Shown here piece after piece: positions 59,501 to 62,419 of a stretch of 64,000 bases of DNA. The notes beneath the pieces were generated by a model. It had not been told where the DNA came from. It saw nothing but the letters and a program-made list of their open reading frames with translations, and searched no databases. Source of the DNA: an uncultured Veillonellaceae bacterium (GTDB taxonomy: Bacteria; Bacillota; Negativicutes; JARBTT01); assembly GCA_963805085.1 (NCBI GenBank), contig CAWDTA010000002.1, forward strand, positions 1,440,001-1,504,000, read 5' to 3'. Within the stretch, counting starts at the first letter, position 1. Every line of letters begins with the position of its first letter. Both the position numbers and the translations under genes were made by a program.

Positions 59501-62419
59501 GCAAAAACTTCAACCCAATCCGTTTTTACGAAACAAAGCGAATTACCTAAAGAAGAAAATTTGAAGGAAAAGATGATTTTTTATTTAAAACAAGTCATTT
59601 CCAATACGCTTAAAATGGATCCGGAACGGATGGATATAAATGTAAGTCTGAGCAAATACGGTTTAGATTCTATTGTGGTTCTAGAAATTAACAACAGATT
59701 GGAAAAATATTTTGACGAGCTTTCGAAAACGCTATTTTTTGAATATAGCACGATTAACGAGCTAGCTAATTATTTTATAAAATCGCATAAGGAAGCTCTC
59801 GTAAAACTCTTTGAGCCTAAAGAAATAGATCAAACAGAAAACACATTGCAGCAAAAGAATCAACATTTGTCTAACATGCCGGATCAGTCATATGAAAAAA
59901 ACAGCCGAACAAAGTATTTTGCTATACAACAGGATAATAAAGACACTGAGTCAATGCCAGTTAATCAAAGAATACAAGCACAGTCGGCAGATAATATTCA
60001 GGAGAGTCTAGTTAATATAATGGAAAAAAACGATTTTAGCTTGGATAATATTGTTAATTTTTTATATGATAAAAATATTATTTCTATAAATAACGATACC
60101 AGAGGTATTATCGCGCCTGTGTTATCAGAACCTTTGTTGATTCATGAAGATGAGCTGAAAAATAAACCGGAGGTTGCAACTATTATTAAAGGTATTGATG
60201 ATGTAAATTCGCCAGTAGGATATGAACGATTGCTGTATCCGTATTTTTTCATAACTTCAGATAAAAACAAATATTTGCGACTCATTATGGATCAATCAAA
60301 TAAACTTATTTTCCCATATACAGTGTCAGATGAAGGTATTTATCAAGAACTTCTCCGTTATAGTCAAAAAATTGGTTATCAATTACTAATAGTTGACTTA
60401 TATAGCGATTGGATTGACTTAAAGCAAACGAGACTCATCCCGCTGGGGGTTTGGCAAAATATTGTTATTAATCAGTTCACACTAGCAGGTAATAAGATGA
60501 GGAAAGTGCGCTATTTAGTGGAGAAATTTAGAAAATCGGGGGAAGTTAGAATTGAAGAATATCATACCGAATTAAATTTACCGTTAGATGAAATGAAAGA
60601 TCTAATGATTAAATGGAGCGAGGATAAAAAAAATGTAATTCACCATTCATTTGTATGTATGGAAGAACTTTTGCGTAAAATGCTCCCTAGTGGACACCGG
60701 GCATTTTTAACCTATCACAATAATAAACTGTGTTCCCTTATAGTAATGGAAAAAATGCAGGATGGAATATTTCTAATGGACCAAGAATTTTATGATGCCA
60801 AAACGGCACCGTTAGGTCATATGGAATATGCAATTGTTAAGATCATTGAACAACTAAAAACAGAGGATGCTCAAATCTTCTCGCTTGGGTTAACCTGGTT
60901 TCCGTTTGCTTTTGAAGATTATCCCCATAAAGATAACGAAGGTTGGGCGTGGCTAAAAGAACAAAATGATAAGAAAACTCTTTTAGCTCAAATCTTTCAC
61001 CAAGGTGAAACAAATTATCAATTTAAAAAGAAGTTTGGTGTCGTAGGTGAACCTGTTTTTGCCTACTTACCTAAAAATTTACCATTTTCCTCATTGTTAA
61101 GCTATTGGACTGTTTTTTATCAAAACTCACTGACTTCTAGCCAACTCATAAAGAAAATAAATCTAATAAATTTATTGGATTTACATGAAAATAAAGAGAA
61201 CGAAAACAGACAAAAATACCACCAAAACAAAGAGGAAAGACGGGAATCTCTTGCTAAAACAGAAAAGTTAGAACAGCTTGATTATAATGACAGCCCGCTT
61301 GATTTACAAACGGATTCTTGGTACTTACTTCAAACTGATGCGGTAAAAAGACATGTTGCTTATTTAAAAACCCAGCCACACTCAATAAACGCAGAAGTAC
61401 TCCACACGATATTTCCATTTAAACATATCATTTTAACGGCACAAGGACGAAGTGCTGAATTGCTTTTTTACCAGGCTTACTCTAAGAAAAAGAAAAAAAT
61501 TGTTACTACCATTCCCTGGACTACGACCCTTATGCATCAACTACAAAATGGTTTTGATGTTGTTGAATTACCTCATTCGTCAGTTAAACAAGCACAATCA
61601 GCTCATTTATTTAAGGGAGAAATGGATTTAGAAGCATTAACGGAACAATTACAGCTAGACAGTAACAACATTGCTTTTGCTGGCTTAGAAGTATTAAGTA
61701 ATGCTAGCGGCGGTAACCCAGTTAGGCTTTCTCACATACAATTGCTCAAAACAATACTACAACAATACCAAGTACCTCTTGTGTTGGATGCTTCTAGAAT
61801 TGTACGCAATGCATTCTTAATAAAAGAATATGAAGAGGGCTTTAAACAAAATACTATTTGGGATATTGTCAAACTGACTTTCGAACAAGCCGATCATGTT
61901 GTAACTAGTTTGACTAAGGATTTTGCGGTTTCAGTAGGAGGATTAATTGCTACAAATGATGATCAATTAGCAACCGACATTCGAAATATTCAATCTAGTC
62001 AGGAGCAAGCAATAACTGTAGATATGAAAAATATGATTATACAAGCATTAGCAGAAAAAGAAACTATTATTGATCTTATAACCAGACAAATGGCATTTAC
62101 TAAACATTTGCAAGATATGCTTGTGAAAATTCGGGTGCCAATATTACAACCTGCCTATGGCCATGCTATTGTCATTGATGTATCCCAGCTCGCAAATGGA
62201 GAAACCAATGCGCAAAAGAAAGAACAGTTTCTCAGAAATTTATTTATTGAAACAGGTATTCGAGGTGGTATTCATCAGGTTGGTAAACAGAAAAATACAA
62301 TACTTGATCAGTGCATTCGTTTGGCAATTCCATTGGGTTTAACAGAGGAAGATGAACATATTATTTATGATAGGCTAAATAGTTTCTTTAAACAAAACAT
62401 GGAAGTACTTATTAACTAA
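47558..62419 (+). CDS. trans-AT type I PKS: DH-ACP-ACP-KR-KS-(ACP0)-DH-KR-ACP-KS-DH-KR-ACP-DUF2156-PLP lyase
   Basis: DHRIHG...LPG, LGLDST x2, DTMCS/HGTGT x2, DHVVQG..VLPG, DHIVKG..VLPG, GIDS/GLDS ACPs; C-terminal DLQTDS, QGRSAE, LDASR, SLTKDF tryptophanase-like motifs. Confidence 0.92.
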   Translation: MLEKGKTFSQKIRHSNYIVRDHRIHGVRTLPGVTLLDMIYRLSAGYIGTQAIELKQVLFKQPVVTSENFDRDVLVTFIPRNSHWEIKVVSQKIKNDVILDSAYDENMECLLFQRENTELDKNFDVKSFISNAKTQWDMDSIYRFGRQVNIQHFEFMKTLGTVYLNDDAEIMHLHLSELAEKYRESFYAHPAFLDGSTLAGLPFQLTGSDQEIFRGIPYIPFLIQRFCIYRPLPKSIYTYTKKPEFIIKNKENPPDIFTFDITIFNELGEILVKFEKMMVKRIREPHLIKKLIEADNNRLSQEKTEFVGESSLKKETTQAWIETQREQPTDTDAKHVIQSYLQKEIGQVLKKNPGDVDINSGFYELGLDSTNLLGLVKVLEEKLGEQLYPTLLFEYSTIQRLSDYLSEDYANAFSCLETSRNKAERKTRDQANSDSRQIIVSYLQQEIGRVLKKNSNEIDVNSGFYELGLDSTNLLSLVKQLEEKLGEPLYPTLLFEYSTIERLAEYLLSNYDKLFLDFHNKENNDKDNRSLQNSNNANMVFLEPGWYKQNIMNQQAVTQKHQHIVILFSDEENVKSAIQQSMCTADVIILTSREENIVCRFEDKFIQLLQLIQERLGQKTPVELLLQIVADSDSEGKYVYALAGMLKTAYLENPKIHSQIIAIDKLQSQSISAIVQILQKESLAFEQDVLEICYRGEGLHRYIRQLNEKEPSANTLISYKENGVYVITGGLGGLGILIADHIANQVKSKLVLIGRSQLDSTKEEKIRQLRQKGAEVLYLQADISKKTEIVNVFNVIKNKFGFITGIFHNAGVLKDQVIIKKNLLEIQDVFRPKVHGLWYLDEATQDEEMDFFIVFSSLSAITGNLGQADYATANAFMDVFATFRQDRVKEGKRFGKTISINWPLWSDGGMQVDDRFEEMMAGSFGMKPLPAQLGLKALDTLLSQNRTRNIVFYGDKSKMRSYLGSYIHATQEDAQISMKRSTYVDAVKKTDDQIFQSEYRSNDIAIIGLSGRYPMADSIREFYQNLREGRDCISNFPKNRWKNYQFGFDVEQFYKYGGFLDHIDEFDPLFFNIAPRQAEMMDPQARLFLETVWEACEDAGFYQDRTQNCYPSSSDKSVGVFAGVFWNHYELFGAEMTQRGIPTSLGISPASIPNMVSYCLNFHGPSMAVDTMCSSALTAIHLACESIRHHQCHYAIAGGVNLVTHPHKFIFLKQAHFLSSDGRCRSFGQGGDGYVPGEGVGAVLLTTLERAQQEGYPIYGIIKGSALNHVGKTSGVTVPDPIAQSEVIADALKIADVDPRSISYIEAHGTGTALGDPIEIQGLKRAFNQWTQDRQYCAIGSSKSNIGHLEAAAGIGGLTKLLLQLKHQEIFPSLHSEQLNPYISFDNTPFYIEHNLKKWNRPEVELDGVKLRYPRRAGLSSFGANGSNAHIIVEEYISQKTKKNSITINEINLALVPLSAKNRDCLKVYAQKLLDFLKDVPEIRGSSNEQLARIVEGEIIQILAKILSVKENDIDPVQDLSEFNADYIQMASFHQNLQERYGLDIDKNIIFQVQSIRSLTSQFIQQYQPELEQHFFRSKDTSDGTKIRHHIDIVDLAYTLQVGREAMDCRVVFNVKTINELIEKLELFIEGKVNIDNCFQGLEKRDRDLITTITYDEDMKEVLDKWIDKGKKNKLAELWVKGLKIDWDKLYGDIRPHRINLPTYPFAREHYWISAVEDKVKLSGNITTCETALIHPLLQQNTSDFSEQRFSSTFTGQEFFLMDHVVQGKRVLPGVAFLEMARAAVDQAVGSLSARPIGIHLKNVVWAQPVIVKEQAVQVNIGLYPEDTGEVAYEIYSESECGEDRVIYSQGRAMLSSVLKMPVLDLKSLQAKCSQHVFNSNQCYEGFRTMGVQYDPAYQGIEKVYVGQEQVLAKISLSVGDNNMKNRFVLHPILLDAAIQASLYLTVPIPFSSSTSLKQFLPVTLEELETISECPADMWALIRYSYGSIAGGKVQKIDIDLCDEQGNVCVRMKKCLLRVTEIDMISVGSMATHGTLLLYPCWQEQTVTEKFLATDYIQHLVMLLELGEVSQESMENHMSGVSCLALQSKQENIGERFQNYAVQVFEEIQRIIKEQPKGKVLIQIVIPAQAEQQLFSGIAGMLRTARFENPKLIGQLIEVEQGEDIEEIVEKLKESSRCLFDDHIRYEKDKRYVIDWREFENFQKAMPIPWKNQGVYLITGGAGGLGYIVAKEIANKVKDVTMIFTGRSLLNKDKQVRIKELEALGARIEYKKVDVTHKQAVVDLIQNIQENFGGLNGIIHSAGIIHDNFILKKTKEELQAVMAAKVTGLVNLDQASKDISLDFLVLFSSTSGVFGNPGQVDYSTANAFMDAYAKYRNSLVSSQKRYGKTLSISWPLWKEGGMRIDAEVEKMIRQSMGIVAMETVTGIQALYRGLASGRDHMMVLEGDIPKIREQLLKPKVYSYQVEPSVTQVDIGLLREKTLDQLKILLGEITKLSVSKIDIDEPLENYGIDSVMITQLNHKFAGVFGELSKTLLYEYQTLGSLAEYFIEEKSHECMLWTGLAKQVRLKTEASKKPEMSSVKSRIDSAFSVVLDSLKPQQKKARSCSYISLDNNPREPIAIIGMSGRYPQARNLKEYWDNLQLGKDCITEIPRERWTLEGFYHPDPKEAVAHNKSYSKWGGFVEKFSDFDPLFFNISPREAINIDPQERLFIESCWEVLEDGAYTKEQLRAKFNSQVGVFAGITKTGFDLYGPDLWRQGEKILPHTSFSSVANRVSYLLNLQGPSMTIDTMCSASLTAIHEACEHLYQRECEMAIAGGVNLYLHPANYSALCAQRMLSVDGKCKSFGYGANGFVPGEGVGCVLLKRLSQAVKDQDHIYAVIRGSSINHGGKTNGYTVPNPAAQRDLIRSTLNKAGVNARTISYVEAHGTGTELGDPIEITGLTQAFGTDTKDTQFCAIGSVKSNIGHLEAAAGVAGLTKIVLQMKHQKIVPSLHAKELNHNINFVKTPFVVQQELAEWKRPVVEIEGESKEYPRIASISAFGAGGSNAHAVIEEYIANNQASSQIAITIQNPAIIILSAKEEERLCEQVLQLLAIIEEQQFTDESLADMAYTLQVGREAMEERLGLIVGSIKELKEKLNNFVENQDGIRNLYRGQVKRNKETLSVFGADEDMAKMIDSWIAKRKYAKLLDLWVKGLNFDWDKLYSDVKPRRISLPTYPFAREKYWLPKINSQSADRVSASAAVFYIHPLVHQNTSDFSVQRFSSIFTGQEFFLADHIVKGQRVLPGVAYLEIARAAVEQASGAMNKGQAGVCLKNVVWARPIVVEQQPVQVNIRLFQKENGNIVYEIYSDCEMADAETETVIYSQGNAMLSTTSKVPTCDLQALQAECSQLSLSRDQCYEAFRAIGIEYGQGHQGISKLYVGSGQVLAKLSLPSSVFDTLGQFVLHPSLMDSALQASIGLNLNMDESMLVSNNSPKLFLPFALEQLEIFNKCTSDMWALIRYSNDSVAENKVKKLDIDLIDNTGIECVRMKGVSLRVLEGEVKSVESPANFDTLIFQPCWHEQDVDGKYKTYRFRQHLVILCELPETSRKRIECEIGGGIQCLILQSGKKNIAERFQDYAVEVLGQIQNIIKEKPEGKVLIQIGVPSQGEQQLLTGLSGLLKTAQLENPKLMGQMIEIEDIERIVENLKENSNTPLDKRIRYQDGKRLVGGWSELEAINAPMLIPWKDRGIYLITGGLGGLGYIFSKEIAGTVKESILILTGRSPLNEAKQVQLKELQTMGVRILYKQVDITQKNAVIDLIQGILNEFGSLNGIIHSAGVIHDNFILKKTKDELQMVLAPKVTGLVNLDQASKDISLDFFILFSSIAGALGNSGQADYSAANAFMDAYAGYRNCLVATNERYGHTLAIDWPLWKNGGMHVNEQTKKMMQNMGIFAIPTSVGIRTLYQCLAVNTDNVMMIGGNINLLEKKIYQIINPVMQKFAKTSTQSVFTKQSELPKEENLKEKMIFYLKQVISNTLKMDPERMDINVSLSKYGLDSIVVLEINNRLEKYFDELSKTLFFEYSTINELANYFIKSHKEALVKLFEPKEIDQTENTLQQKNQHLSNMPDQSYEKNSRTKYFAIQQDNKDTESMPVNQRIQAQSADNIQESLVNIMEKNDFSLDNIVNFLYDKNIISINNDTRGIIAPVLSEPLLIHEDELKNKPEVATIIKGIDDVNSPVGYERLLYPYFFITSDKNKYLRLIMDQSNKLIFPYTVSDEGIYQELLRYSQKIGYQLLIVDLYSDWIDLKQTRLIPLGVWQNIVINQFTLAGNKMRKVRYLVEKFRKSGEVRIEEYHTELNLPLDEMKDLMIKWSEDKKNVIHHSFVCMEELLRKMLPSGHRAFLTYHNNKLCSLIVMEKMQDGIFLMDQEFYDAKTAPLGHMEYAIVKIIEQLKTEDAQIFSLGLTWFPFAFEDYPHKDNEGWAWLKEQNDKKTLLAQIFHQGETNYQFKKKFGVVGEPVFAYLPKNLPFSSLLSYWTVFYQNSLTSSQLIKKINLINLLDLHENKENENRQKYHQNKEERRESLAKTEKLEQLDYNDSPLDLQTDSWYLLQTDAVKRHVAYLKTQPHSINAEVLHTIFPFKHIILTAQGRSAELLFYQAYSKKKKKIVTTIPWTTTLMHQLQNGFDVVELPHSSVKQAQSAHLFKGEMDLEALTEQLQLDSNNIAFAGLEVLSNASGGNPVRLSHIQLLKTILQQYQVPLVLDASRIVRNAFLIKEYEEGFKQNTIWDIVKLTFEQADHVVTSLTKDFAVSVGGLIATNDDQLATDIRNIQSSQEQAITVDMKNMIIQALAEKETIIDLITRQMAFTKHLQDMLVKIRVPILQPAYGHAIVIDVSQLANGETNAQKKEQFLRNLFIETGIRGGIHQVGKQKNTILDQCIRLAIPLGLTEEDEHIIYDRLNSFFKQNMEVLIN

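Follow-up and report, generated by a model that had tools for sequence, protein, structure and literature searches.

The polyketide synthase (PKS) genes in a 64,000-nucleotide stretch of DNA from an uncultured Veillonellaceae bacterium (assembly GCA_963805085.1, contig CAWDTA010000002.1, positions 1,440,001 to 1,504,000 of the forward strand; the window) raise the question of what becomes of a polyketide chain at the end of an assembly line whose last synthase, PKS2, closes with a DUF2156 domain and a pyridoxal phosphate (PLP)-dependent lyase. The original prediction had seen in this end a DUF-SH didomain like that of the leinamycin (LNM) synthase LnmJ, placed there instead of a thioesterase (TE), and had derived from it a new sulfur-containing polyketide. 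Our analysis leads to a partly different answer: with a probability of about 0.7, the ~790 C-terminal residues of PKS2 would be a working DUF-SH didomain of the leinamycin-family kind, from a separate clade, that installs sulfur into the chain, and the chain would be released by a TE on another protein, fused there to a non-elongating ketosynthase (KS0). Coordinates are window positions; past position 64000 the same numbering is continued on the contig (C2) and called window-equivalent.

PKS2 is encoded by a single open frame (47558-62419, + strand; 4953 residues, P0001), and Pfam found in its last 953 residues, in this order, a PP-binding domain (E 1.8e-13), LPG_synthase_C (PF09924, formerly DUF2156; E 9.4e-15, 54.9 bits at a cut-off of 27.5 bits) and Beta_elim_lyase (PF01212; E 3.3e-26, 92.7 bits at a cut-off of 27 bits); in the whole protein they lie at residues 4003-4079, 4260-4456 and 4614-4876. 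The eight motifs by which the didomain had been recognised were all found in frame on the + strand: FTLAGNKMRKVR (60476-60511), MEYAI (60821-60835), FSLGL (60878-60892) and YQFKKKF (61016-61036), followed by DLQTDS (61301-61318), QGRSAE (61442-61459), LDASR (61784-61798) and SLTKDF (61907-61924). The acyl carrier protein (ACP) domain of the last module, the carrier that would present the chain to DUF-SH, occupies 59582-59773 (+; residues 4009-4072, with its GLDS serine motif at residue 4035). Judged by homology to relatives, both halves of the didomain exceed their Pfam cores: the DUF domain, which is of the LPG_synthase_C/DUF2156 type and resembles the C-terminal domain of MprF, extends over ~60125-61234 (+; Pfam core 60332-60931), and the SH domain, of the Beta_elim_lyase fold and assigned from Pfam, PDB match and alignment as a PLP-dependent C-S lyase type, over ~61235-62416 (+). 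The frame stops right after SH (62417-62419), and PKS2 contains no TE. Relatives of the didomain reached 67% identity (E = 0), a sequence homology far beyond chance.

In a HMMER alignment the lysine of SLTKDF (K4787, codon 61916-61918) pairs with the second lysine of the 'sgkkd' segment of tyrosine phenol-lyase, which we take to be the PLP lysine K257 of that enzyme, and the Asp and Arg of LDASR and the Asn of SNASGG align with it as well. These four residues are invariant across 15 aligned didomains, and the DUF-SH of PKS2 has kept every residue that is invariant in this alignment. The best PDB matches of the didomain were, in order, tyrosine phenol-lyases (E 6e-38), 9cen_A, a 'Polyketide Synthase Protein' (E 1e-31; query residues 414-775 on chain residues 48-412), and tryptophanases. 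We assign 9cen to the SH domain of a leinamycin-type synthase because the 420-residue SH region of P0116, a 7324-residue PKS of Streptomyces that has both DUF-SH and a tail of TE size, is nearly identical to it (E 7e-259). The DUF half of PKS2 matched the DUFs of the Streptomyces LnmJ-like PKSs P0116 and P0119 (E 1.7e-26 and 3.8e-29); with both halves homologous to such PKSs and no acyltransferase (AT) domain in the protein, the predicted leinamycin-type didomain in a trans-AT PKS was confirmed.

That the lyase-like domain performs other PLP chemistry, such as β-replacement or the cleavage of a serine or selenocysteine adduct, and leaves the product free of sulfur, we consider very unlikely. 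The scores that suggest it are those of tyrosine phenol-lyase, which led the PDB list (134 bits for SH against 113 bits for 9cen), and of a weak SepSecS-family match in the PKS2 C-terminus (E 8.7e-5, at the cut-off); they are opposed by features that the domain shares with actinobacterial SH domains. In an alignment with two Streptomyces and one Micromonosporaceae SH domain, all four have DS-W in common and share, relative to two tryptophanase-like proteins, a 5-column gap that removes the 'DESYAG' segment, plus a second gap pair; the tryptophanase-like reference P0151 itself matched solved tryptophanases (E 4e-113). PMC3870968, in the part available, reports that the catalytic tyrosine of tyrosine phenol-lyase is missing from PKS-embedded lyase domains and also names a deletion of Arg381; our test of the tyrosine covered the 'DESYAG' segment. 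From the conserved pairing of DUF with SH and the indels shared with LNM-type domains one shared function is argued, and the available text of PMC8479088 calls LNM and non-LNM didomains highly homologous, although the same text leaves the role of the DUF unsolved and the clade of PKS2 stands apart from the LNM-type clade, the only one studied biochemically.

This placement was obtained from a survey of representative proteins with 987 matches at E ≤ 1e-3, of which 164 also passed E ≤ 1e-30; in 146 rows the SH match extended over 290 residues or more. In a FastTree phylogeny of 147 SH regions the DUF-linked SH domains fell into one group of 126 rows (support 89), together with one short DUF-less row and DUF-less fragments, and this group was split from the rows most like tryptophanase by branches with a support of 100. 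The SH domain of PKS2 was placed in a 34-row clade (support 98) and there in a 7-row clade (support 97) with P0002-P0006 and P0020; the LNM-type clade, 32 rows with a TE-sized tail (support 100), included Streptomyces and excluded it. IQ-TREE (LG+C20+F+G4, SH-aLRT, 69 rows) returned the clade of PKS2 with 16 rows (99) and the LNM-type clade with 12 rows (100), again with the SH of PKS2 outside the latter; its groups were picked from the FastTree result, which makes the second tree a check of the method and not independent data. The grouping with PKS-embedded SH domains that the original prediction had proposed as a check was thus found, and the C-terminus of PKS2 is, as judged from alignments and trees, a member of the DUF-SH family outside the leinamycin-type subgroup. 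P0020 (and P0170), from a Bacillus cereus group strain (13-kb contig) and named 'beta-eliminating lyase-related protein' at NCBI, is a free-standing DUF-SH of 772 residues, 59% identical and without a PKS part, which could serve as a soluble model enzyme for the didomain.

DUF-SH had been described as mostly actinobacterial and as a mid-assembly-line device, and neither statement stood. A scan with a six-sequence seed alignment and one genome per species gave 232 stretches with a relative, encoded in 232 species genomes of many phyla; the best 80, which were compared, came from Verrucomicrobia, Paenibacillus, SAR324, Acidobacteria, Lysobacter, Massilia, Fulvivirga, Aquimarina, Chitinophaga, Chromobacterium and others. 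The closest relatives (43-67% identity) belong to a Clostridia metagenome-assembled genome, Paenibacillus, the Bacillus cereus group, SAR324, Verrucomicrobia, Solibacteraceae and Acetobacteraceae. In LnmJ itself the didomain sits in the final module, followed by a hydrolase/TE, as given in the available parts of PMC8479088 and PMC3870968. A terminal position is no novelty either: a DUF lay upstream of SH in 112 of the 146 rows, and after SH these proteins continued for more than 450 residues (64), carried a TE-sized tail (34) or ended within 150 residues (14), some of the last perhaps being contig-end fragments. A host outside the actinobacteria and a terminal position are therefore both precedented. 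In the host's own class the didomain is a rarity: it was found in one (genome G039) of 40 relatives, where the other 11 matches were frames of 459-521 residues that matched the lyase half only, and a search with the DUF half by itself hit two of 401 genomes, the present one included. The description of the host as a low-GC, anaerobe-like bacterium is fair, since its GC content is 37.4%, COX1 gave no match in the genome (83% complete) and [FeFe]-hydrogenase gave three.

The apparent absence of a TE is explained by the window, which ends at position 64000, before the gene of a KS0-TE protein. This gene (P0166, 957 residues in a single open frame; C2:1505586-1508459, window-equivalent 65586-68459, + strand) lies 3.2 kb past PKS2 on the same strand, after an Fe-S protein gene and a major facilitator superfamily (MFS) transporter gene, and encodes a ketosynthase (KS) and a Thioesterase domain (PF00975, E 4.7e-30), the latter with GxSxG plus Asp and His candidates by motif reading. 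All genes from PKS2 to KS0-TE are on the + strand, with no + strand terminator-like site between them. The six best tblastn matches of the KS0-TE protein among the 80 loci (37-46% identity) were the KS domains directly after the didomain in loci L014-L019, of which L014 and L017 are from Verrucomicrobia. In these six, in G039 and in the KS0 studied here Ala stands in place of the first His of HGTGT and the Cys is kept; in both of two more distant loci the KS after the didomain was normal. The KS after SH in this sub-clade is accordingly predicted to be a non-elongating KS0, and that of P0166 is, by sequence comparison, the ortholog of the KS0 found behind DUF-SH in each of the close relatives examined.

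Eight KS0 orthologs were aligned, in which the protein occurs, besides the form found here, as KS0 alone (P0173, G039), KS0-ACP (P0174, P0176, P0183 from a Clostridia metagenome-assembled genome and P0186 from Paenibacillus) and KS0-ACP-TE (P0172); an N-terminal helix, LK.LVALLT.EQQQSLYE, is conserved in seven of the eight. P0172 is 53% identical to P0166 both in the KS0 part and in the TE part. The cluster of G039 has the order KS-ACP-condensation protein, a 5734-residue PKS ending in DUF-SH (66% identical), a KS0 alone (646 residues, 58%) without ACP, an MFS transporter (34%) and an α/β-hydrolase (58%), and contains no TE; BofC, RuvCAB, QueH, SpoIID, QueA and Tgt follow, sporulation and housekeeping genes of which the former support the assignment of the host's class to the endospore-forming Firmicutes. 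From this gene order it follows that the KS0 directly follows the DUF-SH gene and that the hydrolase is a conserved member of the cluster.

A trace of the same order was found in front of KS0-TE. In a DNA search of the whole genome the last 97 nucleotides of the SH coding sequence (62320-62416, +), which end PKS2, matched twice more, on contig C4 and at C2:1505496-1505592, where 73 of the 97 nucleotides are identical. This copy still reads RIIYDRLNDFFKQSMEVIVNHV followed by a stop codon, where PKS2 ends with HIIYDRLNSFFKQNMEVLIN and its stop; just upstream it contains a one-base insertion, which shifts the frame, and an in-frame stop, and its stop codon shares bases with the KS0-TE start codon ATG (ATGTCTAG). 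Because of the frameshift, the in-frame stop and this overlap we interpret the copy as a dead remnant of the end of a DUF-SH gene that formerly abutted a KS-TE gene. On the grounds of the KS0 orthology, the shared His to Ala exchange, the gene order in G039, the architecture of P0172 and the SH relic at its start codon, the KS0-TE protein is assigned to the PKS1/PKS2 line.

The alternative contained in the original prediction, a line truly without a TE in which DUF-SH is terminal and the α/β-hydrolase encoded upstream, rather than KS0-TE, releases the thiolated chain, is distinctly unlikely. The same strand encodes, 3.2 kb downstream, an intact TE that is fused to the cognate KS0 and homologous to that of the KS0-ACP-TE relative P0172, and the hydrolase was absent from the other 80 related loci, although it heads the same operon and a 58% identical ortholog closes the G039 cluster with its KS0 and no TE. 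Two further observations fit release without KS0-TE, namely that PKS2 ends with SH and that the KS0, lacking an ACP, looks catalytically degraded; the second also bears on the state of the whole off-loading end.

Between PKS2 and the relic lie two genes. The first (62718-63860, +) encodes a 380-residue protein with a 2x[4Fe-4S] ferredoxin domain (Pfam Fer4, E 1e-14, residues 284-342); its N-terminal 280 residues matched no Pfam family, the protein gave in the Atlas only unnamed Fe-S (4Fe-4S) protein clusters, and the gene was found neither in the 80 related loci nor in the G039 cluster. The second is the MFS transporter gene (window-equivalent 64059-65303, +, outside the window; Pfam). A mobile element as the origin of these genes was rejected, as Pfam gives an Fe-S protein and an MFS transporter and not transposases. 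The region window-equivalent 63338-68683 is duplicated at C4:179109-184463 (- strand) with 95% identity over 5369 aligned nucleotides, and this copy, which spans the 3' part of the Fe-S gene, the MFS gene, the SH relic and KS0-TE, appears to be a decaying duplicate.

Several observations weigh against a functional, sulfur-installing line, most of them at its off-loading end, which looks battered. Relative to P0172 an ACP stretch of ~105 residues is missing, P0166 being the only one of the eight aligned orthologs without it between KS0 and TE. The KS0 core has deletions of 4 and 14 residues and altered conserved motifs that occur in none of the other seven aligned orthologs, and its Pfam KS-N score is 115 bits, compared with 190-217 bits in relatives. 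In the sub-clade the KS0 comes after SH, fused to it or encoded by the next PKS gene, and here two foreign genes and the relic now intervene. The KS0 of the C4 copy is split into three frames, and four transposase genes directly follow KS0-TE on C2. Beyond the off-loading end, no acyltransferase gene was found in the cluster, ATs being encoded elsewhere in the genome, and no HCS (HMG-CoA synthase) gene among the cluster genes, the sole HCS-like match of the genome lying on contig C3 within a further PKS region. The DUF is preceded by a single ACP and not by a tandem pair; the leinamycin route uses a β-branched acceptor and tandem ACPs, both of which are absent here. The methyltransferase (MT) of the operon had no counterpart in the 80 related loci, the G039 cluster or the fetched relative proteins, and the tyrosine phenol-lyase score given above belongs to the same list. 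In the literature searched, mostly by title and the start of the abstract, no product of any non-LNM DUF-SH cluster was reported.

Much of this could mean that the cluster is decaying, its synthase genes still open and its off-loading end scrambled, so that no defined sulfur polyketide is made or release is poor; a same-genus genome (G001, 84% complete) had no didomain, which fits a loss of this kind. We nevertheless regard decay as rather unlikely, since PKS1 and PKS2 comprise 21.3 kb of uninterrupted frames with all KS, dehydratase (DH) and ACP motifs intact and the didomain keeps its invariant residues. The KS0-TE gene on C2, in contrast to its C4 copy, is one open frame with a TE 53% identical to that of P0172, and the KS0 of G039 also lacks an ACP, so that the missing ACP is no defect in itself.

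The assembly line leading to the didomain is encoded by an operon that starts with an α/β-hydrolase (39453-40241, +; Pfam Abhydrolase_1, E 8e-29) and a class I S-adenosylmethionine-dependent MT (40254-41075, +; Pfam Methyltransf_11, E 1.7e-18), which are counted to it because the gaps between hydrolase and MT and between MT and PKS1 are only 12 and 8 nucleotides. As derived with Pfam from overlapping 600-residue pieces, the AT-less PKS1 (2155 residues; 41084-47551, +) has the order ACP-KS-DH-KR-ACP-KS (KR, ketoreductase), and PKS2, likewise AT-less, the order DH-ACP-ACP-KR-KS-DH-KR-ACP-KS-DH-KR-ACP-DUF-SH. The active-site Cys and HGTGT are intact in all four KS domains of the two synthases and HxxxGxxxxP is present in the three DH domains of PKS2. 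Neither Condensation nor AMP-binding nor Acyl_transf_1 domains were detected by Pfam in PKS1 or PKS2, and the cluster in the window contains no nonribosomal peptide synthetase (NRPS) domain, in agreement with its earlier description as NRPS-free. The start of PKS2 (47558-49100) has an odd domain order, with a weak DH-like domain (44 bits), two tandem ACPs and then a KR; the DNA of the two ACPs is 76.5% identical (48572-48750 and 48878-49056), and no β-branching genes are nearby.

The accessory genes were compared by tblastn with the 80 loci (E ≤ 1e-8). GNAT1, GNAT2, HAD-GNAT, the hydrolase, the MT, the Fe-S protein and the MFS transporter each gave no match there, and the G039 cluster yielded matches to the hydrolase and an MFS transporter only. 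No link of the MT to the MT domains beside DUF-SH in relatives was seen: in a blastp comparison with ~284 fetched proteins, some of them PKSs with embedded MT domains, neither MT nor hydrolase had a match at E ≤ 1e-3. A BioC/BioH-like reading of the pair was dropped because NCBIfam scores were far under the cut-offs, as were all the best NCBIfam matches of the MT.

On this basis we infer the following route. A short polyenoyl chain of a starter and four C2 units, probably a polyene, would be assembled by four elongating modules that each contain DH and KR, and the last module (KS-DH-KR-ACP) would present a 2-enoyl-ACP; the enoyl substrate is proposed because a DH with HxxxGxxxxP and a KR precede the last ACP. 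The DUF would add L-cysteine or L-thiocysteine via its sulfur to the β-carbon (C-3), and the PLP-dependent SH would break the C-S bond of the amino acid by β-elimination, leaving a β-thiol or β-hydropersulfide on the ACP-bound chain. Release would be catalysed by the TE of the KS0-TE protein, docked through the degraded KS0, which probably only docks the TE onto the last module, since its ACP and part of its core are lost. The α/β-hydrolase could be a second release or editing enzyme, a role that gains some support from the 58% identical ortholog in the only related cluster of the host's class, and the MT, by its position a candidate S-methyltransferase, may methylate the new sulfur. A sulfur-containing polyketide, as foreseen by the original prediction, would be the most likely product.

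A tentative, broader reading, which we hold to be possible and not yet probable, would join these points: in this sub-clade ACP-DUF-SH-KS0 would act as a portable 'thiolation module', with the KS0 as a gate for the passage of the sulfur-bearing chain, and the KS0 of the present line, stripped of its ACP and part of its core, would have become a docking arm for the TE, an ACP-less off-loading unit that takes the β-thiol or β-hydropersulfide polyenoyl chain straight from the DUF-SH module. If so, an anaerobic Firmicute would for the first time be the source of a sulfur polyketide derived from DUF-SH, a very small, NRPS-free compound (a starter and four C2 units) that the MT may cap. To our knowledge, no PKS device other than DUF-SH equips a polyketide chain with a thiol or an intact hydropersulfide, and we know of studies only in actinobacterial lines of the leinamycin type. 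The case would be a compact one, with two synthases, four elongations, no NRPS and no β-branching, and the sulfur would go onto a plain enoyl-ACP, which would make it a convenient system for the function of the DUF, the use of cysteine or thiocysteine by a non-LNM SH and the purpose of the conserved KS0.

The surroundings of the cluster are repetitive. A repeat of ~140 nucleotides, whose consensus is a hairpin with a 16-bp stem and a T-run followed by a conserved tail, has 48 copies on C2, all on the + strand within ~200 kb (C2:1382307-1584351), and four further copies each on C4 and C5; 25 copies lie in the window (301-38613), between small genes such as those for GNAT acetyltransferases and DJ-1/PfpI. 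The layout resembles a gene-cassette array, inside which the PKS cluster sits. An integron was rejected, with no tyrosine recombinase nearby and no attC-type structure seen, and Rfam gave no match in the window, the repeat included. An IS110-family transposase (30945-32147, -) is present in two adjacent frames, DEDD_Tnp_IS110 and then Transposase_20, and is probably frameshifted. The ~1 kb directly ahead of the operon (38452-39452) has no open frame and consists of segments that recur elsewhere in the genome: the segment 38631-38872 matches C2:249080-249322 with 95% identity, and more than 10 copies of 38898-39135 are spread over four contigs. The genome (4.2 Mb) holds several more PKS regions (C2:1105743-1135939, C2:1055102 and C3:158753-250299), among them one cis-AT PKS frame of 6298 residues and two long trans-AT-like regions with 63-72% DNA identity to parts of the PKS1/PKS2 line, one with an AT pair and one with the HCS-like gene; the ATs of the genome include the pair at C2:1105743 and C2:1107319, which adjoins another trans-AT PKS.

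Compared with stand-alone enzymes, the didomain shares a fold family with tyrosine phenol-lyase and tryptophanase, and the aligned residues include the PLP lysine, the Asp and Arg of LDASR and the Asn of SNASGG; unlike these enzymes, its SH is embedded in a PKS, preceded by a DUF, has DS-W in place of DSGT and lacks the 'DESYAG' tyrosine segment. With the C-terminal domain of MprF, an aminoacyl-tRNA-dependent lysyl-phosphatidylglycerol synthase, the DUF has in common a Pfam match to LPG_synthase_C above the cut-off, but the match is partial (profile positions 59-252 of 298), a membrane part is missing and NCBIfam MprF gave only E 6e-4; a stand-alone PF09924 protein of the same genome, on contig C5, matched far better (194 bits).

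The leinamycin-family proteins LnmJ, GnmT and WsmR are closer. Their SH domains are described in the available text of PMC8479088 as cysteine/thiocysteine lyases acting on ACP-bound adducts, and Table 2 of PMC3870968, as far as available, gives LnmJ (Q8GGP2) as ...CP-CP-DUF2156-PLP(Beta_elim_lyase)-hydrolase. As in these proteins, the two Pfam families have the same order and immediately follow an ACP in the last elongating module of an AT-less PKS, both halves are homologous, and the PLP lysine, its neighbouring residues and the indels are the same. The SH domain studied here, in contrast, falls into a separate clade and is only ~28-30% identical, and the cluster, unlike the hybrid NRPS/trans-AT PKSs of the LNM type, has no NRPS part and no β-branching cassette, a single ACP before the DUF, and a TE that is carried by the separate KS0-TE protein and not fused after SH.

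The nearest counterparts are the non-LNM DUF-SH PKSs. Meng et al. 2021 (PMC8479088) sort, in the part available, 109 dereplicated DUF-SH clusters into four networks, of which three lie beyond the leinamycin family, and clusters of the present type may already be among them; proteins of Kordia algicida and Lysobacter are listed in Table 2 of PMC3870968, again as far as available, as CP-DUF2156-PLP-KS.... The present line resembles these in having a KS and not a TE after the didomain and in its non-actinobacterial carrier, and differs from them in that its KS0 lacks an ACP and is fused to a TE. The device is thus a known one, met here as a new example in an unusual anaerobe-like host and in a non-leinamycin clade marked by the KS0 that follows; what makes it noteworthy is the compact setting free of NRPS and β-branching, its rarity in the host's class and the unusual ACP-less KS0-TE.

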